A DNA stretch of 64,000 bases from a virus. Taxonomy: Duplodnaviria > Caudoviricetes. Both the position numbers and the translations under genes were made by a program. Position 1 is the first letter of the stretch. Every line of letters starts with the position of its first letter. Positions 1 to 25,942 of this stretch are shown piece by piece. Below the pieces are notes generated by a model. It ran no database searches. It was not told the origin of the DNA and saw only the letters and a list, made by a program, of their open reading frames with translations. Location: IMG/VR virus record IMGVR_UViG_2890625426_000001, positions 3,802 through 67,801 of that record; one strand, given 5' to 3'.

Positions 1-3000
1 CTGGCCGCGGCCCCTGACCGTGGTGAGGCCGTACCCGAAGAGCCTGACCGTCGTGGAGCGGATGTAGCCGATGGCGCTGGTGGTCACCGTGCCCCGACCA
101 CGCAGCAGCAGTGCCGCTGCCTGGTCGCCCACCTGCAAGGACCCCCGTGCCCCGACCGTCGTCACGCCCCGTCCCCGCAACTGGACGGGGATGCGCAGCT
201 GACCGCGTCCGCTCATTTTTACGGTGCCAGTGCCGCGCAGGTAGGCCGTGAGGCGCGGGCGCCCCGACCCGGTGAGGGTCACCCTGCCCGTGCCGGCGAG
301 GGCGACGGCGTTGGGCGTGGCCGCCTTGTCGGTGTACCGCTGCATGAGTCCGGCCATGGTGGCCGAGGCCAGCGCGGCCAGGCCGGTGCCGAAGTAGGTC
401 TTGTCGGTGGTGCGCCGTGAGTACAGGTACTCCAGGCACGCCGAGGCGAAAGCCGAGTTGGACGGGTCGGCGAGGGAGGCCACACCGATGGCCTGGACGA
501 AGGCCAGGTTGTTGTAACTCTGCGTCGGCAGACCGTTCAGCTCGTACTCGGCCTTGAAGGCCGCGGGATCCCCGCCGGTCTGGCTGCGGGCGAAGGACGC
601 CAGCTTGTTAGCCGCCTTGCGCGCGAGCTCGTTGGCTACCGAGGGGAAGTTGAGGTACTCCAGCAGGACGCCCCAGGGGTGCCGGATGGCGTTATACGAC
701 CACTTGTAGGAGGCGCCGGGCACGACTTGGCCGGTCCGGGTGGACTCGTCGGGCACCATGCCGGTGGCGTAGGTGCGGTCGAAGTAGCCCTGGGCGATGG
801 GGTAGTTGGTCGCGATGAACGTCTCCCAGCGGGGGTCGCTGTCGAGGACCATGTACTCGCGCAGGTGGCCGGGGCGGAAGTAGTCGGCCATGTAGCGGTC
901 GTCGGTCTTGTTCCACTGGTCGCCGTTGAGCATCACGTGGGCCGGTGCCTGGTTGGCGGGCATGAACTCGTACGCCTTGATCGCGGCGGTCATGGCCTTG
1001 GCGGCGGCGGCGTAGTTGATCGCACCGTTGCTGCCGAAGATGCGGTCGGCGAAGATCAGACCAAGGGCGATGTCCTTGTCACCGTCGGTCGCTCCTCCCG
1101 AGCCGGTGACGTTGCCGTTCTTGTCGACCGACCAGTTCATCAGGCCGCGCACGTTGAGGTAGCGGCGGACGTAGGCCCACAGCGCGTCGAAGCGGCTCTT
1201 GGCGAGCGCGTCGTACACACCGGTAGGGAGCTGCGGGTTGCCGTAGATCGCGCAGAGGATGAGCGCGTAGCCCATGCCCTCGGACACCGTGCCCCCCTCG
1301 GTGCCTGCTGCTCCAGAGACGGGGTCGCGCTGGTCGGGGCGCTTGATGCGCATCTCACCGGGACGGCAGCCCTCGGTGGTCAGGCACAGGTCCATGAAGG
1401 CGTCGTAGATGGCCCGTGAGTACTGCCGTGCCTTGGTGACGCCCATGGACGGCGGGGCGGCGGCGTCGTACCAGTCCTTGACGATGGCTCCGGCGGTGCC
1501 CGGAGTGGGTGTCGTCGGGTTGCTCGGAGTGGTGCCCGAGTCCCGTGCGTAGATCGCCGCGGAGTCGATGGTCAGGTTGAAGGGCTGCGGGGTCGATGAC
1601 GTGCGCGCTGCGATGGGGGAGCCGGTGCCGAGCACCAGGGACATGTCCAGACCGAGCGCTCCCGCTGGCTGCTTCGAGGTGTCGCTCAGCTGCCAGGCCT
1701 TGCCTCCGTCGACGTAGAAGACGATGGCGGCGGGGGTCCACTCCACGGTGAGAGTGTGCTGCACGGTGAGGTCCAGCTGCACCGTCGACTGAGTCACCGT
1801 GGCATTGGTGTCCCGGACGTAGAAGATCACTTCGTCCGCTCCGCCGTCGCGGTGTGTGAACAGACCGATGGCGCCGTCGGCGTAGCTGGCGCTCTTCAGC
1901 TCGATCAGCGGTCCATAGCCCGGTCCCCGGTCGATCTTGGCCTTGACTTCCCAGCGGCCGTACTTCTGCAGGTTGGCTGTCTGGGTGAGGCCGCCGACGA
2001 AGTCGCCGGTGCCGATGACCTTGAGGGCGCCGTCGGCGACGATGGCGGCCTGCCCACCGGACACGGCGGGGGTGCTAATTACCGAGTTGCGGATGATGTG
2101 CTCCACTTGCGCGGGCCACACGGTGCCCGCGGGTGGCTCGGTGCCCAGGTCGGACGGGATCCAGTCGCCACCCTGGTTGTACGGGCCGTCGGACTCCCCG
2201 GGGACCTTGCACCAGATCCAGCCGTGACGGCGGCGGACGCCGTCCAGGCCGTTGGGGTTGTATCGAGATCGCGCGCCCAGGGCGATGCCGGAGGGGTTCT
2301 GCCAGTTCTGCGGGTTGGGTGGGGTCTTGGCGCCGTTGCGGGAGGTGTCGATGACGAAGCCGAGCTTGCCCTTGATCACCCCGTACTGGTTCTCCAGGAT
2401 GTCGATGGTGCCGTTGGCGTGCGCTTCGCAGTCCAGTGTCGGGCGGAAGTTCGAGATGTTTTCGTTGATGCCGTCGCAGTCGGCGACGCCGGCCTGGGCG
2501 AGCACGGCGGCCATGTCGGCGGACCCGAGCCACTGCGAGTGTCCGTTGTCGTGGTAGACGCGTGCGTTGATGCACTTCTGGCGAATGCGCGTCACCGTCC
2601 AGCGCATGAGGGTCATGCGCGCGTCGAACTCCGCTTGGCTGATGCGGCCCTCGCGGAGCATGCCGAGGACCTGCGGCAGACCGTCGGGCTCCAGCAGGAT
2701 GACGGTGTAGGCGTTGCCGATGGCGTCCAGCTGCTCGTCGATCCACTGCTTGTACTGCGCCTCGTTGGCGGCCCCGCCGGCCGCCGCGCCCCCGTAGTCG
2801 CGGCTGACGATGTTGTAGAAGATGAAGACGTTGCGCTGCCCCAGCGCTGTGGCCGCCTCCACGACGCGCCGCGTGATCCCGGACCCCAGCGGGATCCAGT
2901 CGACCGCGAGCCACTTGGCTCCCGGGGTGGCGACGATGTAGTCGACGCCCGACACGATGACGGGATCACTGAACTGACTGCGGATGGTGCCGACGGTGTT

Positions 3001-5037
3001 GTCCGGGTCCGCCCACAGGTGCCAGCCGTCGGTGGCCGGCTGACTGCTGCCACCCCCGGCGCCGTTGCTGTAGGGGCGCCAGCGGTTGGTGTTGAGCGAA
3101 GATCCGGTGAAGTCGTCGAAGTCGACGAGGGAGAAGCCGCTGGGCGCCGTGGGTGTGGTCGGCGTCGGAGTGGTGGGCTGCTCCACCTCCGGAATCGTCG
3201 GCGCCGTGGTGGTCCCGGCCAGTCCGGGCTGCATGATGCCCGCTGCCAGCATGGAGGCCATGGCGGCGGTGGAGACGCTGAAGTAGTTCTGCTCGTTGTC
3301 GTTGGCCAGCCAGGTCATCCCGTCGGCTGTCCACTGCGACAGGCTTGAGTCGGTCAGCCCACCGATCGTGTACGCCTGCATGTAGGTGGCGTTGATGTAC
3401 GGGGTGCCGTTGCCGCCGACGTAGGAGTAGTCCATGGCAGGTTCGGCCTGCTGGGCGGCCACGTTGCCGTTGGCGCGCTCCTTCTGCTTCGTCGCCAGGC
3501 GCATGGGCATGTTCTTGGCCAGTGCGTCAGTGTTGGGGCCGTTCCAGACATAGTCGGCCGTGATGCGCCAGGGGTAGCGCGTGTTGTTGTAGCCGAACTT
3601 GGCCTCGCCGCTGGGGGAGCCGTCTTCCTTGATGTCGGTCTGCAGACCGTAGGGGTTGGACTTCGCGCCGCTGTAGAAGGTGCCCAGCGCGAGCGGGAAG
3701 TTCCTGGCGATGATGTCCAGCCAGCGGGAGTCCCCCGTGTGCCGGTAGAACTCGCGGAACCAGCCCGGTGCGAAGTAGTCGGGGTAGTAGCTGTAGCCGA
3801 CGGACTCGTAGCCCCAGTAGTCACCGTTGACGTAGAGGTTGCCGCGACTGCTGTAGCTGAGCGGGATGATCTCCTTGGCGAGGATGGCGTTGATGTACTT
3901 CGTCGCCTCGGCGCCGTAGTCGATGCCCGTCGCGTTGCCCCACAGGCGCGAGGCCCACACGAGCGCGAGGGCGATGTCGAAGTCGCCGTCGCTGGCGCCG
4001 CCGCTGCCGCGCTTGGTGCCGTCGGGCCCGATGTACCAGTGCATCAGGCCGTTCTCGTCCAGGTAGTACTTCACGTATCGCCAGAAGCGGTCGAACCAGG
4101 TCTTGGCCTCAGGGTCGTAGATGCCGGACCCGAGTTGGGAGTTGCCGAAGCCGACGGTGGCGAGCATGCCGTAGCCCATGCCCTCGGACACCGTGCAGTT
4201 ACGGACGTTCTCACCCCCGAAGCCCTGATCGGGTGCGTAGACACGAGCCATGCCGGCGGTTGGGACGCCGCTGGTGGTCCAGGTGAAGGCCTTGAACTTG
4301 TCGTAGCGGTTGCGGGCCTGCTGGCGCAGCAGCGCGAGGCTGGCGTTGGGTCGGACGCCGTAGGGGTACCAGTCGGCCAGGGTGATCCCGGTGCCCGCTG
4401 CCCCGGAGCCTCCCGAAGACCCATCGGTGCTGCCGGTGGACCCGCCGCCAGTAGCGGTCACGGCGTTGTCCCACGTCGACACGCTCGCGTGCCGGGTGCC
4501 TGTCCACGCGTACGTGTTGCCCGGGGTGTTGATCGTTGGCGCTACGTCTGGGGTGTCCCCATCGAAGTAAGGCTGCACTGCCGTACCTGCAGAAAGCACG
4601 AAGTTGGTGAACCACACGCAGCCGTGGCTGGTGACGCCGTATGACCCGAGGCCGAAGCTGATCTCGATGCTCTGCCGAGACGACAGGGTGAAGGTGAGAG
4701 AGTCTCGCGTCCACGGCCGGTTGGCGGTGTAGTGGCGCTGGCCGTAGACGGTGGACGCTGTGTTGCGCACGTACAGGTGGCCGTTCTCCACCAGGCCGTT
4801 GGTCTGCGCCTCCCAGCGCAGGGTGTACGTGCCTGCATCAAGCTGGCCGCGGAAGACGAAGGCTCCGGCATCGCCGGACTGGCCGTCGTAGAAGAACAGC
4901 TTGTAGGTGGTGCCGCCGTTCGGCCCCTCGGTGGGTTGGCGCTCCAGCTTGAAGTTGTTGTTCCCGCCGTGAGTGACAAGACCGGCGAGGTTCAGGCCCG
5001 CCCTCGGGTTGGGGATGAGGTTACGGACAATTGGCAC
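1..5037 (-). CDS. Giant multi-glycoside-hydrolase tail fibre/virion protein (CBM-like, GH8, GH16-like split by GH6, GH8, RGxG-repeat region); 3' end beyond the window
   Basis: Hand translation from GTG at 5037 is open to position 1 (1679 codons). GH8 motifs occur twice: TVSEGMGYG/ASDGDFDIA at about 4190/3990 and TVSEGMGYA/ATDGDKDIA at about 1285/1090. GH6 motifs: LEPDGL, GHSQW, DTSRNG, KVPGESDG. GH16-like strands: DFDDFTGSSLNTNRW, KYGRWEVKAK, EWTPAAIVFYVDG. Pro/Thr linkers separate the domains. The gene directly follows the baseplate genes. Confidence 0.9.
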   Translation of the reverse strand, partial: MPIVRNLIPNPRAGLNLAGLVTHGGNNNFKLERQPTEGPNGGTTYKLFFYDGQSGDAGAFVFRGQLDAGTYTLRWEAQTNGLVENGHLYVRNTASTVYGQRHYTANRPWTRDSLTFTLSSRQSIEISFGLGSYGVTSHGCVWFTNFVLSAGTAVQPYFDGDTPDVAPTINTPGNTYAWTGTRHASVSTWDNAVTATGGGSTGSTDGSSGGSGAAGTGITLADWYPYGVRPNASLALLRQQARNRYDKFKAFTWTTSGVPTAGMARVYAPDQGFGGENVRNCTVSEGMGYGMLATVGFGNSQLGSGIYDPEAKTWFDRFWRYVKYYLDENGLMHWYIGPDGTKRGSGGASDGDFDIALALVWASRLWGNATGIDYGAEATKYINAILAKEIIPLSYSSRGNLYVNGDYWGYESVGYSYYPDYFAPGWFREFYRHTGDSRWLDIIARNFPLALGTFYSGAKSNPYGLQTDIKEDGSPSGEAKFGYNNTRYPWRITADYVWNGPNTDALAKNMPMRLATKQKERANGNVAAQQAEPAMDYSYVGGNGTPYINATYMQAYTIGGLTDSSLSQWTADGMTWLANDNEQNYFSVSTAAMASMLAAGIMQPGLAGTTTAPTIPEVEQPTTPTPTTPTAPSGFSLVDFDDFTGSSLNTNRWRPYSNGAGGGSSQPATDGWHLWADPDNTVGTIRSQFSDPVIVSGVDYIVATPGAKWLAVDWIPLGSGITRRVVEAATALGQRNVFIFYNIVSRDYGGAAAGGAANEAQYKQWIDEQLDAIGNAYTVILLEPDGLPQVLGMLREGRISQAEFDARMTLMRWTVTRIRQKCINARVYHDNGHSQWLGSADMAAVLAQAGVADCDGINENISNFRPTLDCEAHANGTIDILENQYGVIKGKLGFVIDTSRNGAKTPPNPQNWQNPSGIALGARSRYNPNGLDGVRRRHGWIWCKVPGESDGPYNQGGDWIPSDLGTEPPAGTVWPAQVEHIIRNSVISTPAVSGGQAAIVADGALKVIGTGDFVGGLTQTANLQKYGRWEVKAKIDRGPGYGPLIELKSASYADGAIGLFTHRDGGADEVIFYVRDTNATVTQSTVQLDLTVQHTLTVEWTPAAIVFYVDGGKAWQLSDTSKQPAGALGLDMSLVLGTGSPIAARTSSTPQPFNLTIDSAAIYARDSGTTPSNPTTPTPGTAGAIVKDWYDAAAPPSMGVTKARQYSRAIYDAFMDLCLTTEGCRPGEMRIKRPDQRDPVSGAAGTEGGTVSEGMGYALILCAIYGNPQLPTGVYDALAKSRFDALWAYVRRYLNVRGLMNWSVDKNGNVTGSGGATDGDKDIALGLIFADRIFGSNGAINYAAAAKAMTAAIKAYEFMPANQAPAHVMLNGDQWNKTDDRYMADYFRPGHLREYMVLDSDPRWETFIATNYPIAQGYFDRTYATGMVPDESTRTGQVVPGASYKWSYNAIRHPWGVLLEYLNFPSVANELARKAANKLASFARSQTGGDPAAFKAEYELNGLPTQSYNNLAFVQAIGVASLADPSNSAFASACLEYLYSRRTTDKTYFGTGLAALASATMAGLMQRYTDKAATPNAVALAGTGRVTLTGSGRPRLTAYLRGTGTVKMSGRGQLRIPVQLRGRGVTTVGARGSLQVGDQAAALLLRGRGTVTTSAIGYIRSTTVRLFGYGLTTVRGRGQ

Positions 5038-5047
5038 AGCGCCCCAA

Positions 5048-5452
5048 TTACTCCGACTCGAAGATCAGCGCGCCTGCAGGCCAGATCACCGGCTGGTTGG
5101 CCGGGATATCGATTCCCCCACCCGGGAAAAGGTGCGCTTCCAGGATGATGCCCGTGCCGGTCTGCGCCGTGTTGGTGCCCCATCCCTTGGCGTTGCCCCA
5201 GGAGGCCGTGCTGGTGCCCTGGTTGATGTCGCTGGTGTTAGCAACGAGGCCGGTGCCGTTGGGTGTCGGGAAGGCTGAGCTGACGTTGACGCGGTTGTAG
5301 CCGCCGCCGGCAACCTCCACGCCACCCGTTCCGTCTTCGTTGGGCATGACGGTAAAGATCATCAGCCAGGGGGTGATCGGCAGTGTGATGCTGAGCGGTT
5401 TTCCGAGGCGGAGCTTCAGGATTTCGTTCTCTAGGAAGTTGAGTGCAGACAC
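5048..5452 (-). CDS. Phage tail fibre/baseplate-associated protein
   Basis: Probable GTG start (VSALNFLENEILK...EVAGGGYNRV...ASWG...AGALIF), a pattern common in small phage tail-fibre adaptor proteins. Lies between baseplate J and the giant fibre gene. Confidence 0.7.
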   Translation of the reverse strand: MSALNFLENEILKLRLGKPLSITLPITPWLMIFTVMPNEDGTGGVEVAGGGYNRVNVSSAFPTPNGTGLVANTSDINQGTSTASWGNAKGWGTNTAQTGTGIILEAHLFPGGGIDIPANQPVIWPAGALIFESE

Positions 5453-5456
5453 GGGC

Positions 5457-6584
5457 TCAGCCTTGTTCGACGGTGATGTTGACGGTGCCAGCCTGCACAA
5501 GTGCGGCGACACCCTCCAGAAAGATGTTATCGGTGGGGTTCACGAGAGCATCGACATAGTCGACGCCCGGGACATTGGAAAGGAGCTGGACCAGCTCGTT
5601 GTAACGGACCACCACGTCCCAGTCCCATGAGGCGGGGCTGAGGTAGGAGCGCACAGCAGCAGCGGCGTCCGCGCGCACGGCCTCCACGTCGAAGCCGGGG
5701 AAGGCCTTCAGGGTGGCTGTCACATCGACCGTGGTGATCGACGGGTTGATCGCGTAGACGACGAAGTTGGCCTCTCGCTGTGACTCGAGCAGCGCAGTCA
5801 CGGCATTGCGGACGACCGTGCCGACCGGGTTCCCCGCAGGATCGACCACGGCGACCGAGATGGTCCGCTCGTTGTCCATCCGGCCGTTGGCCGGGCTGTA
5901 GCCGTCGATGGCGAAGGCGCGATCCACTCCCGGCACATCGAGCGCGAGCGTGGCGAAGTCTTGCGGAACGATGGGCCGCGGGGCCAGCAGCTTGAGGCGG
6001 GCCTGGAGGCGGTTGAGGTACTCGGCGTCGGTCTCCGCGTCCTCACCGCCCACCGGCAGGGTGGTCGATGTGACGGACTTGACGAAGGTCAGGGCGTCCA
6101 TGAGCTGCAGGGGCCCGATCGGCAGGTTGTTGTACGCCTCGCCCGGCTGGACCGACTCCACGTTGATGTACACCTGCGAGAAGCCCGCCGGCACCGTAGC
6201 GGTGCTGAGGGTGCGGAAGAAGGCGAAGGTGTTGTTGCCGAGCGCGTAGCCGATGAGGGTGCCACCGGGGATGGAGTACCCCGAGTCGTCGGTGACCTCC
6301 CAGCTGGTCCGCATCCGGGCGTACGCGGCGTCCACGGGCGGGACGTTGAGCATGGTGCGCCCGAAGTCCCGGTAGATGCTCCGCGGGACCCGGCTGGCCA
6401 CGTCTCGGTTCTCCGCGATGGCGCGGCAGATGACCTCGATCATGGCCACGTCGAGCTGCCCCTCACGGGGTACCCAATCGGGGAAGACCGCAGCCATCGC
6501 TTGCAGGGTGCGGGCCGCCAAGGCGCTGGAGTCGGTACTGAGGGCGGTGAAGGCGCCGTCGTCGCCTACGTCGATGTAGCTCAC
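5457..6584 (-). CDS. Baseplate J/gp47-like wedge protein
   Basis: GGEDAETDAEYLNRL, DFATLALDVPGVDRA and LLSNVPGVDYV motifs; synteny. Confidence 0.9.
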   Translation of the reverse strand: MSYIDVGDDGAFTALSTDSSALAARTLQAMAAVFPDWVPREGQLDVAMIEVICRAIAENRDVASRVPRSIYRDFGRTMLNVPPVDAAYARMRTSWEVTDDSGYSIPGGTLIGYALGNNTFAFFRTLSTATVPAGFSQVYINVESVQPGEAYNNLPIGPLQLMDALTFVKSVTSTTLPVGGEDAETDAEYLNRLQARLKLLAPRPIVPQDFATLALDVPGVDRAFAIDGYSPANGRMDNERTISVAVVDPAGNPVGTVVRNAVTALLESQREANFVVYAINPSITTVDVTATLKAFPGFDVEAVRADAAAAVRSYLSPASWDWDVVVRYNELVQLLSNVPGVDYVDALVNPTDNIFLEGVAALVQAGTVNITVEQG

Positions 6585-7057
6585 AGCTGGTCCCAGGTCA
6601 TGCCCATGTCGTTCCAGGTCAGGGTGCCCAACCCGTTCCAGGTGACGCCGACGGGCAGCGAGCCATCGTCTTCGCCGTCATCGGGGACGCTCGGCGTCGG
6701 GGTGGTGATGGCGATCCCTCCGCCTGGGGTGTCCAATACCTCGATCAGAGGCCGAACGCTGACGGTCACCCGCCGGATCGACGGGTCGATGGAGTCGACA
6801 GCGGAGTCCAGGGTCACCTCCGCCCGCGGCTCCCAGTCGCCGAGCTCGTTGGCGATGGTGTCCAGCGCTTCCTGCGCCGGAGCACCGAAGGCCATGTCGG
6901 GAATGCCGAATGTCGGTGCCTCCAGACGGTGCCCCTGGGGAGTGCCCATGTACGTGGCCACGCACTGGCTGATGTCCTCGTAGGAGTCCTGCTCCACCAC
7001 CGCAGCGCTGCCGCCGAGGCCTATCTGGAAAGGAACGCGCAGGTGAGGGATCGCCAT
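6581..7057 (-). CDS. Baseplate wedge GPW/gp25-like protein
   Basis: PF...GTPQGHRLEAPTFGI...WEPRAEV motif. Confidence 0.85.
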   Translation of the reverse strand: MAIPHLRVPFQIGLGGSAAVVEQDSYEDISQCVATYMGTPQGHRLEAPTFGIPDMAFGAPAQEALDTIANELGDWEPRAEVTLDSAVDSIDPSIRRVTVSVRPLIEVLDTPGGGIAITTPTPSVPDDGEDDGSLPVGVTWNGLGTLTWNDMGMTWDQL

Positions 7058-7061
7058 ACGG

Positions 7062-7340
7062 TCACGACTTTACTTGCCAGCCGATCAACCAGGCGGGATT
7101 GCTTTCGCTGCCGGTGAAGATGACCAGGCATTGGTCGCCGGGCTGAGGTGGCTGGTCGCTGCGAGTGAAGGGCATCGGGCCGAAGAAGAAGTCGGGAGAG
7201 AAGCCATCGAGCGTGACCCGCGCAGTCGTGGCGGTCACGTCCAAGACTGTTCCGGACACCGGGCCGATGGGTCGTGACCGCTTGCTCTTGTTGGCACCGC
7301 CGGACAGGTAGGTGGTGAAGGCATCGCCGAGGTCGCTCAT
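7062..7340 (-). CDS. Small baseplate spike/OB-fold protein
   Basis: GTVLDV...PQPGDQCLVIF...AWLIG resembles the gpV/gp5 N-terminal OB fold; synteny. Confidence 0.65.
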   Translation of the reverse strand: MSDLGDAFTTYLSGGANKSKRSRPIGPVSGTVLDVTATTARVTLDGFSPDFFFGPMPFTRSDQPPQPGDQCLVIFTGSESNPAWLIGWQVKS

Positions 7341-8821
7341 TCGCTCCCCAGAAGCAGTAGCGGAAGCGGGTTCACTGGCGACCCCAGCTTGCGGATCTCA
7401 AAATGCAAATGCACCCCAGTAGCGGTGCCGGTCTGCCCGGCACCGCCGATGATGTCGCCCTTCTTGACCGCCATGCCGTTGCGGCACCGGATCCGGTTCA
7501 GGTGCCCGTACCGGGTCTCGTAGACGAGCGGGCCTGCGGCCTTGGTGCCGTTGTGCTTGATGTAGACGACGTTGCCGTAGCCGCTTTGCTGGCCGGCGAA
7601 GGTCACCACGCCATCGTGGCTGGCCGTGACGGCCTGGTTGAGGCTGGCGTTGATGTCGATGCCCTGGTGCTGGGAGCTGGCGCCCTTGGTGGGGCTGGAG
7701 CGTGCACCGAAGCCCGAGTTGATGCGGTGGTCACCGCCGATGGGCCAGGCCCAGAAGTTGGAGGTCGGTGCTCCCGCACCCCCGGTGACGGTGGTCCCGG
7801 CGCCACCACCGGCCAGGTTGGCGAAGTAGTTGGCATCCAGGCCTGCCTCGGCCGCGCCTGCGGCTGGCTCGGGTGGCGGGTCAGGCTCGGGCAGCTCGGG
7901 CTCGGGGAACTTGATGGTGACCGAAGACTGCTCGGCGAACAGGTCGCGCTCGATCTGGGAGACGAACCACTTGCCGTCGGCGGGTCCGAGGTCGAACAGC
8001 TCCACGGTCGTGCCGGCGGGGGAGTCCCAGCGGCTGGTGATCAAGTCGTAGGTGCCCTCGGACATGGGCTTGCCCACGTCCCAGTCGAAGTTGACGAAGC
8101 CGATGCCTGCGGAGAACTCGCGCACGTCGTAGACGGCGGGACCATTGACGTAGGCGGAGTCCGGGCCGAGGTTGAGGGTGCCCTTGTCGACGTAGCACCG
8201 CCAGTTGATCTCGGCGAACCAGCGCTTGATCGCTGTCCAGGTGTCCTCACGGTTGTCGTCGGTGATCTCGGATGCCTTCTCCCGCGACGTGGCGGGTATC
8301 CGGGAGGCCCCACCGGAGAAGTAGTCCTCGACGATGCCCGAGGCAGGTTCGGAGCTGCTGGTCTCAGTGGCCACGGCGGTCAAGGTGCCGCGGGCTAGCT
8401 CGGTCTTGACCCGCTCGGTGTTGTTGTTCGACACCGCCACGACTGCCCACGGGATCTCGCTCATGAGCTCGCGCGCCGCCTCCACGCGGGTGACGCTGCC
8501 CGCGGCGAACTTCCGCGGCTCGTTGTGCCGACGCATCTCGGCAACCAGCAGGTCCTCCATGGTCAAGGTCAGGCTGTCACCGTCCTTGTCCACCCCGGCT
8601 AGCTCAAAGGAGTGGTCATCAACCTGCGCTGTGATGCGCTTGGAGAGCATCCCGGACTTCAGCAGCGTCCGCTCCGGGTCGAAGATCCGCAGGCTGAGCG
8701 TCGATGCTCCGTCCGTGGTGCGGGTCACCGAGGCGGACTCCACGTTGCGCCCGATGTCGGCGACCTGGCCGCCGTCGGCAATGAGCGTCATGCCGTCGGG
8801 TAGGAAGTTGAGGTCCTCCAT
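7337..8821 (-). CDS. Baseplate hub (gpD-like) fused to an M23 peptidoglycan endopeptidase
   Basis: C-terminal HQGIDI, GYGNVVYIKH, YGHL and TGVHLHFE M23 motifs; N-terminal hub-like region; Pro/Gly linker. Confidence 0.88.
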   Translation of the reverse strand: MEDLNFLPDGMTLIADGGQVADIGRNVESASVTRTTDGASTLSLRIFDPERTLLKSGMLSKRITAQVDDHSFELAGVDKDGDSLTLTMEDLLVAEMRRHNEPRKFAAGSVTRVEAARELMSEIPWAVVAVSNNNTERVKTELARGTLTAVATETSSSEPASGIVEDYFSGGASRIPATSREKASEITDDNREDTWTAIKRWFAEINWRCYVDKGTLNLGPDSAYVNGPAVYDVREFSAGIGFVNFDWDVGKPMSEGTYDLITSRWDSPAGTTVELFDLGPADGKWFVSQIERDLFAEQSSVTIKFPEPELPEPDPPPEPAAGAAEAGLDANYFANLAGGGAGTTVTGGAGAPTSNFWAWPIGGDHRINSGFGARSSPTKGASSQHQGIDINASLNQAVTASHDGVVTFAGQQSGYGNVVYIKHNGTKAAGPLVYETRYGHLNRIRCRNGMAVKKGDIIGGAGQTGTATGVHLHFEIRKLGSPVNPLPLLLLGSE

Positions 8822-9468
8822 CAGGCAGGCACCTTGAGGACTTGGCCCACCTTGAGGCTTCGCGGATCACGGACGCCCGACGCGTTGGCAATGTCCTGCC
8901 ACCGGGCTGAGGAGCCGTACATCTTCTGCGCGATGCCGCTCAGGGTGTCCCCGGCCTTCACGGTGTACGTGCGCTCCCCGCCCGACGATCCGGTCGATGC
9001 TGCCGCTGGCGGTGCTGCAGCTGCCGCGGGGGAGCTGTTGTGCACGACGACCTGAGGCGCGTTGTGCTGGCGGAAGGTCAGCGTCATGGACTGACGACAC
9101 CTTCGCCCGTCGTCGCGGTACTCGTCGTCGTCCTGGTACTCGATGCCCACAAGAATCCAGGCGAGGTCGGTGCGCTTGACGTTGGGGCCGGCGAGGCGCA
9201 GCACGTCGGGGATCTTGGGCGTGGGGATGCGCCGGTCCTCGATCAGCTTGATGATCGGCTCGATGTCGCCGTCGGGGTACTGGTCGATGGCCACGTCGAT
9301 GGTCTGCTCGAACAGCTCCACGCCCGAGAAGTGGGTGTAGGCGTACGTGCGGGGACGGTCGATAGAGTCCCACACGGCGCCGCCAGCACTGATGTACGGC
9401 GCTCGCTCGCCCAGGTCCACGGAGATGACGAACGGGCCAGTGGCCAGGAAGATGCCCAGCTTGCTCAT
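8821..9468 (-). CDS. Tail tube initiator-like protein with C-terminal LysM domain
   Basis: YTVKAGDTLSGIAQKMYGSSARWQDIANAS...LKVGQVLKVP is a LysM domain; follows the tape measure gene. Confidence 0.88.
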   Translation of the reverse strand: MSKLGIFLATGPFVISVDLGERAPYISAGGAVWDSIDRPRTYAYTHFSGVELFEQTIDVAIDQYPDGDIEPIIKLIEDRRIPTPKIPDVLRLAGPNVKRTDLAWILVGIEYQDDDEYRDDGRRCRQSMTLTFRQHNAPQVVVHNSSPAAAAAPPAAASTGSSGGERTYTVKAGDTLSGIAQKMYGSSARWQDIANASGVRDPRSLKVGQVLKVPA

Positions 9469-11159
9469 GCCCGGGCCAGCTTGCCCTTGATCTGACGGAC
9501 GATGATGTCTGCCGTCCGCTGCGCGTTGAGCACGTCGGAGCCGGATACCCGGATGGCGCCGTCTTCGAAGATGACCGAGGGACCCATGGGGGACGGGCCC
9601 TCGGGCAGGGGGTCGACACGGGCGCCCTTGGGCAGCGAAAGCAGCTCCGGGCCGCGCTCGCCGACCCAGCTCATGCCCGGCTTGCGGGTGATGCCGCCCT
9701 TGGCCTGACCCGGGTACAGCGGCTTGGCGCCGAAGAGGCTGCGCAGGTCGTTGCTGATGCCTTGGATAGCCTTGGGTGGCCCGCCGTCCTTGCCGGTAAC
9801 CGTGTCAACGGGGTTGGCCACGGCGTTGGCGGTGGCGCCGGCGAAGCCGACGACCCCAGAGACGATGTTCAGGATGCCCTTGACTTCGTCGAGGGTGTTG
9901 ACGACGCTATCCAGCAGCGGGTCGATGACCGGCTGCAAGGCCACAAGCAGGTCGGTGATCCCCCTGATGATGTCGACGGCGCCCACGAAGATGTCGAAGA
10001 TCTTGGGACCGGCGTCCTGAAGGAAGGGCCAGACCGTGCCCACCCACAGCGTCTTGACGTTGCCGACGATGTCCTGCACGTCCTCCCAGATGGAGACCAG
10101 CCGCCCACCTGAGCCGGTCCGGTCGTCCAGCAGGGACACGACGCTGTCGAAGCCGCCCTGGCGGTACATGAAGAGCATCTCGGCGCCGAGACCCTTGATC
10201 TGCGGGTAGGCACCCTTGGCGCGGGCGGTCAGCTTGACGATGCTCTTGCCGAGTCGGTCGAAGCCCTTCTCACCGATCCGGTTCACATCGGGCATCACGT
10301 CGCGTGCCAGGAAGTCGCGCATGGGTGTGAAGGCGGTCGCCATGCCCAGCTTGGCGCGCTCGCGGAAGTTGGCGATCTGGCCAAGGAAGGTCTTGGACTG
10401 GTTGTCCATCGCGTTCTGGAAGCGTGGGTCGTTGGCGAGGCCCTTGGTGATGATGTCGGCGGCCTGGGTGCCGGAGATGAGGCCGTTCTCGGCGTCCTTG
10501 CGGATCTGCGCGATGGTCCGACCCGAGGCTTGGGCGAGGTAGCCGTAGGCGTCCACGCTGGCGTCGGCCAGCTGCCCGATCTCCTCCAAGCTGAGGACGC
10601 CATTGCGGCGCATCTGCCCTAGGGCTCGCGCCATCGCCTGGATGCCCTCCTCCCCGGTGTTCAGGGCGGCAGCGGCGTTACCGAACGCCGTCAGGGTGGG
10701 GATCACGTCCTTGGCGTCGTAGCCCACGGCCATGAGGTACTGCGAGGTCTTCTGCAGGTTCTCTAGGTCGAACGGCGTCCTGAGCGCCATGGCTTGCAGC
10801 TGAGCCATGAACGCTTCGCCGGCCTGCGCCGACCCCAGCAGGGTGTTGAAGCCGACCTGCGCCTGCTCCATGGCGCCGGCAGTCTTCAGCCCGAAGACCG
10901 ACGCGGCGATACCCGCTGCTCCGAGAGCAGTGGCCGCTCCACCGACCGCCTGTGCGCCCGCTACGGCCCATCCGGCGACCTTGCCGAACGCTCCTCGAGC
11001 GCGGTCCAGGGCCGATGACGCACCGCCAGCACTGCGTGCGGCCCGGTCCGATTCCTGGCTGATGCGGTGGATGGCGGCGGCTGCGCGCTCGGCGTCGCGG
11101 CGGAACCGGGAAGCTTGTTCAAGGGTGAGCCGTACGCCTACTTCGTCGTTTTCAGCCAC
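9465..11159 (-). CDS. Tape measure protein
   Basis: Ala/Gly-rich helical protein with tape-measure domain (TPFDLENL...ARALGQM) and VGERGPELL C-terminal motif. Confidence 0.9.
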   Translation of the reverse strand: MAENDEVGVRLTLEQASRFRRDAERAAAAIHRISQESDRAARSAGGASSALDRARGAFGKVAGWAVAGAQAVGGAATALGAAGIAASVFGLKTAGAMEQAQVGFNTLLGSAQAGEAFMAQLQAMALRTPFDLENLQKTSQYLMAVGYDAKDVIPTLTAFGNAAAALNTGEEGIQAMARALGQMRRNGVLSLEEIGQLADASVDAYGYLAQASGRTIAQIRKDAENGLISGTQAADIITKGLANDPRFQNAMDNQSKTFLGQIANFRERAKLGMATAFTPMRDFLARDVMPDVNRIGEKGFDRLGKSIVKLTARAKGAYPQIKGLGAEMLFMYRQGGFDSVVSLLDDRTGSGGRLVSIWEDVQDIVGNVKTLWVGTVWPFLQDAGPKIFDIFVGAVDIIRGITDLLVALQPVIDPLLDSVVNTLDEVKGILNIVSGVVGFAGATANAVANPVDTVTGKDGGPPKAIQGISNDLRSLFGAKPLYPGQAKGGITRKPGMSWVGERGPELLSLPKGARVDPLPEGPSPMGPSVIFEDGAIRVSGSDVLNAQRTADIIVRQIKGKLARA

Positions 11160-11161
11160 AG

Positions 11162-11410
11162 CTAGCCCTTGCGCTTACCTTTGCCCCGGCGACTACCGCC
11201 AAAGACCCTGCCTACAGCATTGCCGACAGCGATCCCGATTGCATCGATCTCCTGCTGCCGCCGTTCGGAGTCCATCGCCAAGGCCTGCTCGATCACTTCG
11301 TTGAGGACGCGCACCTCATCGGCAGGTGCTTTGAGGTAGGTGAGGGGGTCGGCTCCCAGGATGAGCGCCACCGCTGCGGACTTGACCCCAGGGTGGCTGG
11401 CTATTCCCCC
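11162..11410 (-). CDS. Tail assembly chaperone, -1 frameshift extension (gpT-like part)
   Basis: The -1 frame from GGGGGAA (11404-11410) is open into the ORF MALILGADPL... Confidence 0.8.
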   Translation of the reverse strand, partial: GGIASHPGVKSAAVALILGADPLTYLKAPADEVRVLNEVIEQALAMDSERRQQEIDAIGIAVGNAVGRVFGGSRRGKGKRKG

Positions 11411-11895
11411 TGGTAGTCGTCCTCAAGGTCACGCAGCTCCAGGCCCGACCACTGCAGGAGCTGGGCAGCGTGTGCCATCAGGTCTCCGTCGATGACGAAG
11501 AGCGCTCGGCACACCGCGATGGCTCGGCGGTCCGCCACACCCAACATGACGGCCAGCTCCTGGCTGCCGAAGCGCAGCGGCTCGCCGTCCTCGCCCTCGG
11601 TCAGCTGGCGGCCGTCGTCAGTGGTGATGGTGATGCCGGTAGCGCAGGACACGAGGACCTGGGCGTTCGCGTCCAGAGCCGCCTCGGAACGCTTCTTCTT
11701 GCCCGCCTTGTTGGCCTCGCTGAGGCTGGAGCTGTGCTTGTCGATCTCGCTCCAGTCGGCAGGGCGGTAGGTCACGCTGATGCTCGGCGTACCCTTCTCG
11801 CCCCATCCCGGCACGTTGAGGGTCTTCTTCTTGGCTTCGACCAGCTTCTGACGCGCGCCGGCCAGGTCGGCGAAGACCGACGAGTCGGTGCCCAT
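11401..11895 (-). CDS. Tail assembly chaperone (gpG-like)
   Basis: Between tube and tape measure; ends CAG GGG GAA TAG. Confidence 0.85.
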   Translation of the reverse strand: MGTDSSVFADLAGARQKLVEAKKKTLNVPGWGEKGTPSISVTYRPADWSEIDKHSSSLSEANKAGKKKRSEAALDANAQVLVSCATGITITTDDGRQLTEGEDGEPLRFGSQELAVMLGVADRRAIAVCRALFVIDGDLMAHAAQLLQWSGLELRDLEDDYQGE

Positions 11896-12302
11896 CAGCC
11901 GACCGACCCGTCAACGGAGATCATGGCTTCCCACATCTCCACCTCGTTGCTGTCGGAGTCGACCTCGCCGGGAGTGACGCCCGAGAGAATGCCGGTGTAG
12001 ACCTCAGCGCGTCCGAAGGCGTTGCCATCCAGGTCCAGCGCTTGCTTGCTGATCACCACGCGCGCCTTGCCGACGCGGGAGTACATGTAGCGACGCAGCT
12101 CCACGTCGGCGTCCTCGTACGGCTTGCTCACCGTCACGTCCTCGGTCGACGACGGCGCGCCATAGGCGCGCTGGGGGCCCATGCCGCCGCGGCGGCGCTT
12201 GACCGGGTCGGAGGTGACGCCACTGCCCGTGAAGGTGTCGAAGGTGATCTGGCGTCCCTCACAGGACATGGTCACGAGGTACTGATCTTGACGGCCTGGC
12301 AT
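11895..12302 (-). CDS. Tail tube protein
   Basis: 135 aa, beta-rich, directly after the sheath gene. Confidence 0.8.
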   Translation of the reverse strand: MPGRQDQYLVTMSCEGRQITFDTFTGSGVTSDPVKRRRGGMGPQRAYGAPSSTEDVTVSKPYEDADVELRRYMYSRVGKARVVISKQALDLDGNAFGRAEVYTGILSGVTPGEVDSDSNEVEMWEAMISVDGSVG

Positions 12303-12316
12303 GCGTGTCCTTGGTG

Positions 12317-13759
12317 CTACAGCGCGATGTCAGCGCTGGTCTTGACGATCTCAATAACGACCAACTCGGCGGTGGGCGACATGCGCAGGCTGAGCACCGC
12401 GTGCAGCTCACCGTTGGCGATGGTGGTGGGGGTGTTGACCTGCTCGCCGACGTTGACCAGGTAGGCCTCGTCTGGCGTCTCGCCGAAGAGGGCGCCTTCG
12501 TTGTAGTAGCGCAGCAGGACACCGGAGAGCGCGCTGCCGAACTCGGCGAGCAGCTGGCCGCGGCCGTCGACCTGGCGGAAGAGGAAGGTCTCTGCCACCG
12601 TCTCGGCCTCCGCGGTGATGGCCATGCGTAGGCGCTGGTTGGCCAAAAAGCTCCAGGCGTAAGCATCGGTGCCCGGTTTGGCCAGGGTGCGGTAGCCGTA
12701 CAGCGTGACCCCTGCGGGCAGCTCGCGGAAGACGTTCAAGCCGTTGGTGTTCAGCGCCTCGCGCTCAGCGTCGGACCATCCGGACTGCGTCAGGCCGACG
12801 ACGTAGCGCGCACGCCCGCTGACGCCGGCCGCAGCGTTGTTGGCCGAGCGGGTCTGGTCGTTGCGGGCCATGAGCGCCGCGGCCATCGCCGTCGGGGGCA
12901 CCTGGCGGGTGGTGCCACCGAGCAGACCGGGAACGACATGCCAGGGACCGAAGAGGGCTGCGTATTCATCACCCTGCAGGCTCTGCGCCTCGGTGCCCGC
13001 CGCGGTCGCCGACGAGGTGTCCGTGTCGTCCAACAAGGCGATGCGGTTGTGCTCCTTGGCGTGCGTGCGCAGGGCACCGCGCGTGTTGGTGGAGGTGGCT
13101 CCGGGAATCCAGACTTGCCCCGGACCCAGGCCACGAGTGAAGCGTGCCAGGGCAGTGCCGCGCGTCACGTCGTCAACGGCTGCGTAGTCGTCGGCACCGC
13201 CGGTCATGTTGGCGGCTGCGACGACAGCCGGGTCCGCGCCGCTGGCACCGGTGGGCAGGCTGACCGCTGCCCAGCTGGAGCTGTTGGACCAGTTGATGGC
13301 GTCGGTCACGCTCGCCAGGGACGGGGAACGCTCCACGCCGAACTCCGGGTTAGCGATGACCAGCGCGAACTCACCCACGGCCGCGCCGGCCGTGACTGCC
13401 ACAGTGACGCCGTTCCACCATGCTCCGGCGTTCTTGGCATCGACCCGAAGCGACGGGTCACCGTCGGCGTCGTTGAGGGTGATGCCAGCGAGCGCTGCGG
13501 CCGGTCCTGCGACGCGCTGCACGTAGGCCGTGCTGCCACCCTCGCGGAAGTAGGTGTCCAGGGCATCCCACAGCAGCGACTCGGTGATGCGCGCCCCGAA
13601 GTATGTGCGGAACTCGGTCATGTTCCGGACCAGCTGCGGCGAGGTCAGGGAGCCGCGCTGGGCCGGCCCGACGACGAACGAGGTGCCGGTGTCGACACCG
13701 TTGCCGCGACCGGGGGACGAGGCCCGTGAGGTTACTTCGACGCCTGGACGTGGACTCAC
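12317..13759 (-). CDS. Contractile tail sheath protein
   Basis: PGVEV N-terminus; VPPTAMAAALMARND; LNTNGLNVF; LYGYRTL; YYNEGALFGETPDEAY; PTAELVVIEI. Confidence 0.93.
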   Translation of the reverse strand: MSPRPGVEVTSRASSPGRGNGVDTGTSFVVGPAQRGSLTSPQLVRNMTEFRTYFGARITESLLWDALDTYFREGGSTAYVQRVAGPAAALAGITLNDADGDPSLRVDAKNAGAWWNGVTVAVTAGAAVGEFALVIANPEFGVERSPSLASVTDAINWSNSSSWAAVSLPTGASGADPAVVAAANMTGGADDYAAVDDVTRGTALARFTRGLGPGQVWIPGATSTNTRGALRTHAKEHNRIALLDDTDTSSATAAGTEAQSLQGDEYAALFGPWHVVPGLLGGTTRQVPPTAMAAALMARNDQTRSANNAAAGVSGRARYVVGLTQSGWSDAEREALNTNGLNVFRELPAGVTLYGYRTLAKPGTDAYAWSFLANQRLRMAITAEAETVAETFLFRQVDGRGQLLAEFGSALSGVLLRYYNEGALFGETPDEAYLVNVGEQVNTPTTIANGELHAVLSLRMSPTAELVVIEIVKTSADIAL

Positions 13760-24307: not shown

Positions 24308-25942
24308 CTACTTCTGCATCCAGGTGGTGCCGTCGTAGACGAACTCGTAGACGGTGCGGCCTCCCGCGGCCGGTGCGGTGAACGGCGTGGAGAACCGGAA
24401 CTTGACGCCCCAGGTCACAGTACCCATGGCTCCCGACGAGCTGTTCGTGATGTCGACGGTCAGCACCGCGCCAGGGAACGCGTTGGACGGGTTGGTGATG
24501 GTGAAGGCGTTGCCGTCGGTGACGACGAGCCTCTTGTAGGCGCTGGACGATGCGTCGGGCGTGATCGTGGCGGCGTACACCAGGGTGCCGATGCCGTTCG
24601 GGAAGAGGAACGAACTCGTGTCCGAGAGGAGGGAGTATGCGCTGACGCTGGTCCCGGTGATGCGGTTGCCGAAGTACTGGTGGCCGCCAGCGGTGATGCT
24701 CTCCTTGATGCCGAACGTCGTCGTCTTGACCGTCTGGTCATCGGTGATGCGGTTGAGGCCGACGACGTTGTTCGTGCAGCCTGACAGGTTGATGCCTGGG
24801 TACTGCGGGCCGTCCTTCTGCTTGCCGACATTGCGGATGTTGTTGCCGACGATGACGTTGTCGTTGCCGGCGGACCAGATGCCCGAGTTCCACGCGCCGT
24901 CGACGGTGTTGTTGTTGCATGTTGAGTGCGCGCAGCTGACGCTGATGCCGTTGTCTTGGCTGTCGAACACGTCGTTGTGATCGATGGTGGCGTAGTCGCA
25001 GCCCGCGGTGAGGCCGATCGCTTCGAAGCCTGTGGTGGACGGCGCCATGCGGATCTTGTTGTTCGTAATGGTGGAGTGCGTCGGGAAGCCGGTACCGGCC
25101 GAGCCGTTGAGGCCAACGCCCATGCCACCCTTGATCCCGTCCATCTCGCAACGGTCGACGATGCACCAGGGCGAGTTGTCCTTGATGGTGACCCCGAAGC
25201 CCGTCTGCCCGTCATTGAGCCCGGTGTTGTCGATGCGACAGTCGAGCACCCGGCTGTAGGGGGTGCCGCTGATGCCCGTAAGCCCTTGGTAGACGATGCC
25301 AGCATCGCCCAGGTCGTGGATGTACAGGTCGCGGCAGGTGATGCGCGAGCCGTTGGTGACCTGGACACCCTTGAGCGATGCCGCCGCCGTGCCGAAGTTG
25401 CCGTCCAGTCCAAAGCCTTGGAGCGTCACGTTCTTGACCGCGGCGCCGGATGTGCCGAGGAACACCGCATTCGCTACGCCGGGGCCTGCTTTCACCGAAG
25501 TGAGGTAGCGGCCGAGGCTGAGGATCGTGATGTCACTGACGAGCGTCACTGCCGTGTTGAGCAGGTACGTGGCACCCACCGGGATCAGCACCGCACCCTT
25601 GACCGCCCCTGCTGCATTGATCGCTGCCTGGAACGCCGGGGAGTCGTTGGTGACCCCATCGCCCTTGGCGCCGTAGTCCCGGACGTTGAAAGCGAGATCG
25701 CTCTTCTTGAAGCCCAGCGCGTAGGAGAGGACCCCACCCGGGACATCGAGGGGGAGGGCAGAGGCGTCGTTGGGATCGAGAACGTAGGAGCCGGCTGGCG
25801 CGTCCGCGAAGGCGCCGAAGAAAATCCTGCCCGTCTGCGAGCCGGTCGCTACGAGCTTGCTGCCATCGGGGTTGTCACCCGTCGGACCGCCGGCTCCACC
25901 ACCGCCCTGCTGGGGTGGGCGCGTGATGGGTCCGAAGCCCAT
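24308..25942 (-). CDS. Pectate-lyase-like beta-helix spike/depolymerase
   Basis: FNVRDYGAKGDGVTNDSPAFQAAINAA; repeated IxNNxI/GI rungs; FVYDGTTW C-terminus. Confidence 0.9.
   Translation of the reverse strand: MGFGPITRPPQQGGGGAGGPTGDNPDGSKLVATGSQTGRIFFGAFADAPAGSYVLDPNDASALPLDVPGGVLSYALGFKKSDLAFNVRDYGAKGDGVTNDSPAFQAAINAAGAVKGAVLIPVGATYLLNTAVTLVSDITILSLGRYLTSVKAGPGVANAVFLGTSGAAVKNVTLQGFGLDGNFGTAAASLKGVQVTNGSRITCRDLYIHDLGDAGIVYQGLTGISGTPYSRVLDCRIDNTGLNDGQTGFGVTIKDNSPWCIVDRCEMDGIKGGMGVGLNGSAGTGFPTHSTITNNKIRMAPSTTGFEAIGLTAGCDYATIDHNDVFDSQDNGISVSCAHSTCNNNTVDGAWNSGIWSAGNDNVIVGNNIRNVGKQKDGPQYPGINLSGCTNNVVGLNRITDDQTVKTTTFGIKESITAGGHQYFGNRITGTSVSAYSLLSDTSSFLFPNGIGTLVYAATITPDASSSAYKRLVVTDGNAFTITNPSNAFPGAVLTVDITNSSSGAMGTVTWGVKFRFSTPFTAPAAGGRTVYEFVYDGTTWMQK

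Follow-up and report, generated by a model that had tools for sequence, protein, structure and literature searches.

A predicted baseplate wedge subunit with a chain of GH8, GH6 and GH16-like domains in an actinobacterial prophage

Most phage depolymerases known are trimeric spikes with a beta-helix fold, and a baseplate wedge consists of two J-type subunits and one I-type subunit, with six wedges per baseplate. Among phages, glycoside hydrolases (GH) of beta-1,4-glucanase families have been tied to infection in the Erwinia amylovora phage S6: host cellulose is the first receptor, and the phage encodes a GH48 protein, gp094, and a GH5 glucanase, gp095, the latter active on carboxymethylcellulose (PMC9544554). 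Among actinobacterial enzymes, the pertinent case is CslZ of Streptomyces coelicolor, a GH6 protein of the cslA-glxA-cslZ system for a cellulose-like glycan which degrades peptidoglycan in vitro and was assayed alongside a D120A variant (PMC9040799). Here we analyze a stretch of 64,000 nucleotides (the window, meaning the stretch at its full length) from a virus of the Caudoviricetes (Duplodnaviria), namely positions 3,802 to 67,801 of the IMG/VR record IMGVR_UViG_2890625426_000001 (G000:C111:30758-94757), which at its left edge, on the minus strand, contains most of the gene for a giant protein of 1895 amino acids that combines sugar-binding-like and GH modules with a predicted baseplate domain.

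The reading that we favor, with a probability of about 0.6, is that the giant gene encodes a gpI-type wedge subunit (comparable to P2 gpI and T4 gp7) with an N-terminal glycanase arm that would cut a beta-glycan of the host. We infer the presence of the protein in the virion, its enzyme activity, its copy number and its substrate from the sequence. With regard to function, the nearest precedent is phage S6, in which enzymes of beta-1,4-glucanase families are likewise tied to infection via a host beta-glucan; S6 differs in being an N4-like podophage of a Gram-negative host, with other GH families that reside in two separate proteins, not chained to a wedge subunit and not nested. The beta-helix tailspike depolymerases are similar to the predicted arm in being virion-borne enzymes that strip host surface polysaccharide but differ in fold, oligomer logic and mode of attachment, the arm being composed of the helical-barrel and barrel folds that are typical of GH8 and GH6, respectively. 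The wedge subunits of P2 (gpI), Mu, pyocin R2 and the Streptomyces contractile injection system (CIS) share with the giant protein the fold of the C-terminal 205 residues, the Pfam family and the location near Baseplate_J; what sets the giant protein apart is that some 1690 residues (~1690) of sugar-binding and GH modules precede this domain.

The gene, its baseplate anchor and the order of its modules

The original prediction, made from the letters of the window, postulated an unlisted minus-strand open reading frame (ORF) of more than 1679 codons directly downstream of the baseplate genes, and this frame is real. In an open-ended ORF listing, it runs without a stop for 1679 codons, from a GTG start at window position 5037 to base 1, and the contig DNA to the left of the window adds 216 intact codons up to a stop, yielding a protein of 1895 amino acids (P0002; full gene coordinates L007:107-5794) that is called at the same length in a public record (P0158). 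The gene is missing from the default ORF track because the frame leaves the window at the left edge. The GC content at codon positions 1, 2 and 3 is 0.61, 0.52 and 0.90, and the difference between the third and the second positions indicates that the frame is coding. The start lies 10 nucleotides past the stop of an upstream Gp80-like gene and is preceded by a GGGG run.

Judging from profile searches, homologues and structure prediction, the protein ends in a P2 gpI-type baseplate wedge domain (residues ~1688-1895; L007:110-733, equivalent to G000:C111:30110-30733, minus strand), which is located to the left of the window and was thus out of sight of the original prediction. Residues 1560-1895 alone score 21.0 bits against the Pfam family Tail_P2_I (PF09684), compared to a cut-off of 20.6, and close relatives of the domain score 27-33 bits. 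A HMMER search of 1.84 billion representative sequences retrieved 1581 relatives of the gpI domain at E<=1e-3, including 146 with E<=1e-30. The best 150 of the 1581 are for the most part stand-alone proteins of ~200-210 amino acids that match query positions ~129-332. In the AlphaFold2 (AF2) model of the C-terminus, built with an alignment of 76 gpI relatives, the predicted local distance difference test score (pLDDT) exceeds 90 over the last ~205 residues and is below 55 over the preceding Gly/Arg-rich repeats. All 15 best Foldseek matches of the gpI model in the Protein Data Bank (PDB) are baseplate chains (E 4e-4 to 5.6e-2; target TM score 0.18-0.53), from the S. coelicolor CIS (9gtp_A, E 4e-4), cyanophage A-1(L), phiCD508, phi812, Bas63, PhiTE, Mu (9ki1_b), diffocin, XM1 and pyocin R2 (6u5b_0), with 8kea_c and 9gb2_M also listed. 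Given that the Foldseek root-mean-square deviations are high and that the gpI profile matches the sequences of solved chains marginally (E 0.64), the similarity is at the level of the fold. This C-terminal wedge-type domain provides strong indirect support for the display of the enzymes on the virion.

Ahead of the anchor, the order of domains in the original prediction (GH8, GH16-like/GH6, GH8), their positions and the intervening Gly/Ser and Pro/Thr linkers are borne out by the translation, and Pfam detects GH8 in two stretches, GH6 and, marginally, GH16, all above the respective cut-offs. In window coordinates, all on the minus strand, the protein starts with a beta-sandwich resembling carbohydrate-binding modules (CBM), delineated from the AF2 model, Foldseek and homologues (residues 1-195, positions 4453-5037), followed by a Gly/Ser linker apparent in the translation (residues 196-217, positions 4387-4452), GH8 domain 1, identified by Pfam and by phmmer matches to CelA (residues 218-607, positions 3217-4386), and Pro/Thr linker 1, again from the translation (residues 608-632, positions 3142-3216). 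The next unit is a GH16-like fold, the first strand or strands of which, recognized by alignment to the homologue P0033 (residues 633-669, positions 3031-3141), are split off by a GH6 domain detected with Pfam and phmmer (residues 670-985, positions 2083-3030) from the main body of the jelly roll, which was defined by Pfam and alignment and appears catalytically dead (residues 986-1165, positions 1543-2082). Pro/Thr linker 2, from the translation (residues 1166-1182, positions 1492-1542), then leads to GH8 domain 2, identified by phmmer matches to CelA (residues 1183-1570, positions 328-1491), and to a Gly/Arg-rich beta-repeat spacer with short strands and low pLDDT (residues 1571-1687, positions 1-327) that connects the arm to the anchor.

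The N-terminal jelly roll of the original prediction receives support at low model confidence. The 215 N-terminal residues have no Pfam match; the AF2 model of the module is all-beta, with pLDDT 74-85 at residues 61-130 and a mean of 58, and at this mean confidence its Foldseek matches are CBM4-2, the CBM4 of CelK, CBM16 and CBM22 (E 1e-6 to 1e-5). In addition, Pfam CBM_4_9 (PF02018) is found in the homologues P0052 (26.7 bits compared to a cut-off of 25.9) and P0160. The module is thus a candidate CBM4/9-like carbohydrate-binding head, predicted with low model confidence.

The GH16-like/GH6 block turned out to contain both folds, as proposed, although not side by side. Residues 633-669 align to residues 193-236 of P0033 (E 6e-5) and resemble the first strand of the GH16/LamG fold, and residues 1002-1137 align to residues 246-386 of the same protein (E 4e-7); the two pieces are ~10 residues apart in P0033 and ~330 residues apart in the giant protein, the intervening stretch being GH6. 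A Pfam search with the isolated segment 620-700 (81 residues) gave no match. From these alignments, the GH6 domain is inserted into a loop of the GH16-like fold.

Catalytic residues and the proposed action of the arm

The GH8 family (PF01270) is detected by Pfam with E 1.1e-51 (176 bits, cut-off 24) in two stretches, the best spanning residues 244-519. In phmmer searches against PDB sequences, the best match of both domains is Clostridium thermocellum CelA (1kwf/1cem, E 4e-30, for domain 1; 1kwf, E 5.8e-33, for domain 2), followed, among the solved GH8 structures, by the glucanase 5xd0 and the chitosanases 7cju and 1v5c. In GH8 enzymes, the Glu of the SEG motif is the catalytic acid and DGDxD supplies the subsite Asp, whereas the base of CelA is the Asp of its YDATR motif. 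In alignment with CelA, domain 1 retains the SEGMGYG Glu and DGDFDIA, and domain 2 retains the SEGMGYA Glu and DGDKDIA; the acid Glu and DGDxD are shared with CelA, 5xd0, 7cju and 1v5c alike, and the SEG Glu, the Asp residues of DGDxD and a YN motif are invariant across five aligned GH8-bearing sequences. The Glu-rich loop of 7cju has an aligned counterpart in a Glu of domain 1 (SGEAK), and the inserted loop of 5xd0 and 7cju, which according to the GH8 subfamily literature presumably bears the catalytic base of these enzymes, is short in this domain. The two GH8 domains are 34% identical to each other, compared to 52% identity between domain 2 and the single GH8 of a homologue from an IMG/VR provirus (see below), which rules out a recent internal duplication.

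The GH6 domain (PF01341; residues 700-956, E 7e-34, 118 bits, cut-off 27) gives phmmer matches to 6fao (E 1.2e-35), Mycobacterium tuberculosis Cel6 (1up0, E 3e-32) and T. fusca E2 (1tml, E 2e-29). The conserved Asp motifs of GH6 are RD, EPD, which contributes the acid, DxGH and ESDG; in alignment with 6fao, 1up0 and 1uoz, all four are retained, as SRDY, LLEPD, HDNGHS and GESDG. In the same alignment, three Cys positions of the family are occupied by Y, Q and P, a loss that fits folding in the cytoplasm as part of a virion. The GH16 match (PF00722; residues 1007-1137, E 7.5e-6) is marginal, at 26 bits compared to a cut-off of 22. The catalytic motif of GH16 is ExDxxE or ExDxE, and in the weak match of this part of the protein to the beta-1,3-glucanase 3atg the motif region does not align.

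If the giant protein is indeed a wedge subunit with a glycanase arm, a virion with a single copy in each wedge would bear six such arms, assuming the wedge stoichiometry that is generally known for baseplates. On contact with a cell, the CBM-like and GH16-like modules would grip a beta-linked glycan of the host surface, and GH6 together with at least GH8 domain 1 would cleave beta-1,4 bonds in it; the path thus cleared would let the baseplate reach the wall, and there the M23 peptidase in the hub region would act on peptidoglycan. A second, stand-alone GH6 encoded in the same element may cleave the same polymer from inside the cell at release. Should the enzymes be active, they would imply an unrecognized beta-1,4-linked surface glycan that serves as a receptor or a barrier in high-GC actinobacteria, would represent a natural case of multi-enzyme display on a virion, and would be a source of cysteine-poor GH6 and GH8 variants suited to cytoplasmic folding.

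Several observations weigh against a wedge-borne arm that cuts a host beta-glycan. In both GH8 domains, Asn replaces the Asp of the CelA YDATR motif, a substitution that is also present in 5xd0 and 7cju, and domain 2 has no loop aligning to the Glu-bearing loop of these two enzymes; lacking both the CelA-type base and this loop, domain 2 may be weak or inactive. In the GH16-like module, GAIGLF occupies the place of GEIDIE in P0033 and GEWDFVE in L108; with the ExDxxE motif gone, the module has the GH16-like fold but does not qualify as an enzyme of that family, so that only the fold assignment of the original prediction is retained and the module is, by its aligned sequence, predicted to be catalytically dead. 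With respect to the anchor, the full-length protein scores 17.7 bits against Tail_P2_I (residues 1744-1847), compared to the cut-off of 20.6. With respect to the substrate, the CslA-type glucan or biofilm matrix named in the original prediction is a conjecture, and we know of no beta-1,4-glucan of this host; no GH6 or GH8 domain is encoded in the host genome outside the element and, accordingly, no host hydrolase of the BcsZ or CslZ type that would indicate host cellulose. Finally, the activity of CslZ on peptidoglycan in vitro implies that the substrate could be the wall itself (PMC9040799).

The same substitutions bear on an alternative under which the enzyme folds chiefly bind a receptor in the manner of lectins, with catalysis lost or vestigial, so that the arm would be a multivalent adhesin. 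The GH16-like module has lost its motif and yet is 69% conserved between this phage and the related IMG/VR provirus, which suggests that it is kept for a non-catalytic role; both GH8 domains are devoid of the CelA-type base, domain 2 without an evident substitute, and the arm starts with a CBM-like module. Nevertheless, an adhesin of this kind seems quite improbable, considering that GH6 keeps the complete set of aligned Asp motifs, that the GH8 acid Glu, DGDxD and the YN motif, the latter also seen in 5xd0 and 7cju, are invariant in the aligned sequences, and that intact GH16 motifs are kept in relatives.

Relatives of the giant protein and of its GH6 domain

Three of the 50,697 GenBank phage records match the whole protein in a tblastn search, all through the GH6 part and at 29-31% identity, and each GH8 domain weakly matches one short unannotated record of this set; the GH-chain architecture was found in none of them. 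A megablast search of the giant gene against phages gave no match. A search for proteins of similar length returned the giant protein itself and unrelated GH8 proteins but missed a true homologue, the cluster of which is represented by a 340-residue fragment (P0008). In our literature searches, we found no description of GH8 or GH6 on a phage baseplate protein, although supplementary annotations may hold some. The novelty implied in the original prediction holds for the GenBank phage records searched but is qualified by the existence of a 60%-identical homologue and of modular relatives.

The neighboring Baseplate_J protein likewise has distant relatives among phages, with 93 records at <=33% identity (70 from Arthrobacter phages and 14 from Gordonia phages) and 29-33% identity to J proteins from myophages of Arthrobacter and Gordonia. 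Scans of genome contigs and viral contigs for close relatives of Baseplate_J confirmed none, and among 301 genomes of the order, two have a match, one of these being the genome analyzed here. In the Arthrobacter phage PrincessTrina, the gene following Baseplate_J ends in a gpI-type domain (E 1e-9), and in the Gordonia phage DalanDe, it begins with one (E 4e-7); the corresponding gene of Bolt007, gp33, has no significant similarity.

Apart from the protein's own entry, 11 of the best 150 gpI relatives exceed 500 amino acids, and 10 of these 11 were scanned (all except P0153). Pfam identified GH8 together with gpI in P0009 and P0012, and GH16 in P0033 and P0052; BLAST comparisons add a 40%-identical GH8 in P0033, unlisted by Pfam, and an N-terminal module common to P0012, P0033 and P0052. 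The homologue noted above, P0157 (1449 amino acids, labeled 'endoglucanase' by JGI/IMG), belongs to the cluster of the fragment P0008 and is 60% identical to the giant protein over residues 633-1895, with 55-56% identity in the N-terminal module. It corresponds to the ORF at 6560-11008 of L106 (1482 amino acids), in a 69-kb IMG/VR provirus that CheckV rates as 73% complete. This protein follows the same order, with a CBM-like head, a GH16-like fold with nested GH6, GH8, the repeat spacer and gpI, but lacks the first GH8, having one such domain instead of two. The neighboring ORFs of the provirus match those of the present phage in size and order only, and a stand-alone GH6 is present there as well.

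Among 80 IMG/VR loci with a gpI relative, one encodes a GH chain and one a head with GH16; the median ORF, counted from the first start codon, is 241 amino acids. A scan with a GH8 pattern yielded seven IMG/VR loci, one being the homologous provirus and the other six encoding proteins of 780-2023 amino acids with 28-29% identical GH8 ends. In the family defined by the common head and anchor, four architectures can be distinguished: Nterm-GH16-gpI, Nterm-GH16-GH8-gpI, Nterm-GH8-gpI and Nterm-GH16L[GH6]-GH8-gpI. By sequence comparison, the giant protein is the largest known member of this small modular family, which is known from metagenomes and IMG/VR. The giant protein suggests a second design of depolymerases in which a small universal wedge subunit anchors linker-joined modules of cellulase families, relatives exchange the GH16, GH8 and GH6 cassettes, and the dead shell of one enzyme houses another.

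Terminal GH8 domains with 28-29% identity are encoded in other high-GC viral contigs of IMG/VR, in proteins of 2023 amino acids (L196:2931-9002) and ~1108 amino acids (L192:5649-8975). The PHROG family 1696 ('major tail protein') matches GH8 domain 2, and the 2023-residue protein may be the kind of protein behind this PHROG.

The stand-alone GH6 of the element (window 49013-50086, plus strand; Pfam GH6, E 1.7e-32) is 33% identical to the GH6 domain of the giant protein and, as mentioned, has a counterpart in the related provirus. In a tree of 15 GH6 sequences, which also took in 11 GH6 genes of the host genus and to which the usual warning on long branches applies, the two tail GH6 domains and the two stand-alone GH6 proteins form separate, fully supported, long-branched clades, neither of which includes the genes of the genus. 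These deep separate clades, together with the lack of any other GH6 in the host, rule out a recent capture of GH6 from the host genus. With the giant protein as the query, 18 of 27 same-genus genomes give a match; the listed matches fall in the GH6 part, and none of them lies in either GH8 region.

The frequency of free-standing GH6 genes in the host genus suggests a polysaccharide-rich habitat, and the protein mirrors the secreted modular cellulases in joining several GH domains to a CBM by way of Pro/Thr linkers; on these grounds, the enzymes could be aimed at environmental polymers, such as plant or microbial cellulose or mixed-linkage glucan, and help the virion cross biomass or a biofilm matrix. 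This seems very unlikely because the host strain lacks GH6 and GH8 domains beyond those of the element, the fusion to a wedge subunit places the enzymes at the cell-contact face, and the GH6 clades of the phage branch deeply and apart from the GH6 genes of the genus.

With regard to host glycans, a search of the genome for the GlxA Pfam family (PF07250) came back blank, as did its controls. The element encodes a processive-type family 2 glycosyltransferase (GT2; window 47312-48640, minus strand), with matches to Pfam GT2 families, a QQLRW motif and membrane spans discerned by eye. The GT2 gene is divergent from the stand-alone GH6 gene, and its product is 29% identical to a chromosomal GT2; a counterpart was not found in the record of the related provirus, the completeness of which is 73%. 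Behind the gene for the chromosomal GT2 (515 amino acids, with a weak chitin-synthase-like match) come those for two beta-helix proteins, and a GGDEF protein is encoded close by (L200, G000:C110:15000-27946, at 8203-12931). The presence of the chromosomal GT2 along with the beta-helix genes indicates that the host probably makes some exopolysaccharide, for which this cluster may be the locus.

The arrangement of GH6 and GT2 in the element resembles that of CslZ, which is also an actinobacterial GH6 acting on the cell envelope instead of on food and divergent from a processive GT2; CslZ differs in being a host lipoprotein and not part of a virion, and the likeness is drawn from its description. 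The juxtaposition of the two phage genes permits a 'make and break' scheme under which the phage GT2 would lay a beta-1,4 coat on the lysogen, where it would act as a shield, and the GH6/GH8 arm of the virion would cut that same coat, the glycan being the lock and the arm the key. We consider this scheme speculative and improbable. Its bolder corollary is that the GH6 pair would also cut peptidoglycan, in the manner of CslZ, and GH6 would then count as a new family among phage lysins.

The tail module, lysis genes and the integrated element

The genes upstream of the giant gene, on the same strand, are those of a contractile tail. In the direction of transcription, the order is tail sheath (window 12317-13759; Pfam Phage_sheath_1, E 1.3e-6, below the cut-off), two small genes, tape measure protein (9465-11159; TMP_3, E 4.6e-23), LysM tail protein (8821-9468; LysM, E 3.4e-12), a tail hub-region protein of 494 amino acids with a C-terminal M23 peptidase (7337-8821; M23, E 3.5e-28, with matches to PHROG endolysin/peptidase families), a gene for 92 amino acids, a gp25/gpW-like baseplate protein (6581-7057; GPW_gp25, E 8e-4, below the cut-off), Baseplate_J, a gp6-like wedge protein (5457-6584; PF04865, E 2e-23), and the small Gp80-like, fiber-associated gene (5048-5512; PF23140, E 1.8e-12), all of these on the minus strand. 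The head genes, including those for the portal and the protease, are Mu-like.

Downstream of the giant gene are a collar/tail-fiber gene and, after it, a candidate lysis region (L005:16425-18640, minus strand) that encodes a protein of 293 amino acids, two small proteins of 104 (phrog_4565) and 118 amino acids, the latter a membrane protein, and a holin-like protein of 105 amino acids (phrog_8269, E 3e-7). No recognized endolysin domain was found in this region; the 293-residue protein has no PHROG or Pfam match and is a member of a mostly viral protein cluster.

These genes are relevant to the possibility that GH6, and perhaps GH8, hydrolyze the glycan strands of peptidoglycan, in which case the arm would be a wall lysin of the virion and the stand-alone GH6 an endolysin or a part of one. 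The precedent is again CslZ, with its reported activity on peptidoglycan in vitro (PMC9040799). Among the scanned ORFs (60 ORFs plus the tail-region and other sets), we found no canonical endolysin (amidase, GH25, GH19, transglycosylase, CHAP or NlpC/P60), so that the wall might be the target of the GH6 pair; the only wall-active Pfam matches in these ORFs are the M23 and LysM domains of the tail, the stand-alone GH6 is conserved in the related provirus, and a holin-like gene is located downstream of the tail genes. On the other hand, receptor-binding functions and depolymerases are usually located on peripheral arms borne by the wedges, whereas wall lysins usually reside in the hub, the needle or the tape measure protein, and an M23 peptidase is already present in the hub region of this phage. 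Furthermore, the stand-alone GH6 is encoded ~50 kb away from the holin-like gene, the true endolysin could be the 293-residue protein, encoded three genes ahead of the holin-like one, the GH6 and GH8 domains have endoglucanases and chitosanases as their best structural relatives, and, with many ORFs lacking a family, the absence of an endolysin is weak evidence. Taken as a whole, a lysin role for the GH6 pair appears unlikely. Cleavage of a surface beta-glycan by a wedge-borne arm, our preferred reading, and wall hydrolysis together raise the question of whether GH6 enzymes act on actinobacterial envelopes via a cellulose-like glycan or via peptidoglycan.

Beyond the holin-like gene lie genes for a TrwC relaxase, a type IV coupling protein, an RDD protein and a tyrosine integrase beside a tRNA-Ser gene. 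The element is located at this tRNA-Ser(TGA) gene (L005:8716-8809), the last 24 bases of which recur at G000:C111:94964-94987; this direct repeat at the far end delimits an element of 75.4 kb that includes the whole window. The GC content is 65% in the element and 75-77% in the flanking host DNA. From its gene content and these boundaries, the element is identified as a contractile-tailed temperate phage integrated in a high-GC actinobacterium. A fragment of the host RpoB has at least 600 matches, and those listed come from many genera of actinobacteria, with identities of up to 85%. The relaxase (980 amino acids, with a helicase domain) and the TraG/TraD-type coupling protein (639 amino acids) are encoded on the minus strand at L005:11201-16199, equivalent to G000:C111:21958-26956, between the lysis-like genes and the integrase and inside the boundaries set by the attachment (att) sites; an ArdC N-terminal domain is found among the ORFs of the right arm. 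The element may be a hybrid of a phage and a conjugative or mobilizable element.

The element also encodes two beta-helix proteins of the pectate-lyase-like/NosD type (window 24308-25942 and 29050-31110, both minus strand), and the contrast drawn in the original prediction between the enzyme chain and beta-helix spikes is therefore misleading. Both genes are located between the portal and capsid-protease genes, which is an unusual location for genes of a spike-like type. A scan of 60 further ORFs, in window positions 18700-64000, gave one match to GH16 (E 1e-4) and one to Laminin_G, along with three HNH endonucleases, an RNA ligase, a Gp3-like recombination directionality factor, MerR/HTH regulators, an M78 peptidase and a GIY-YIG protein.

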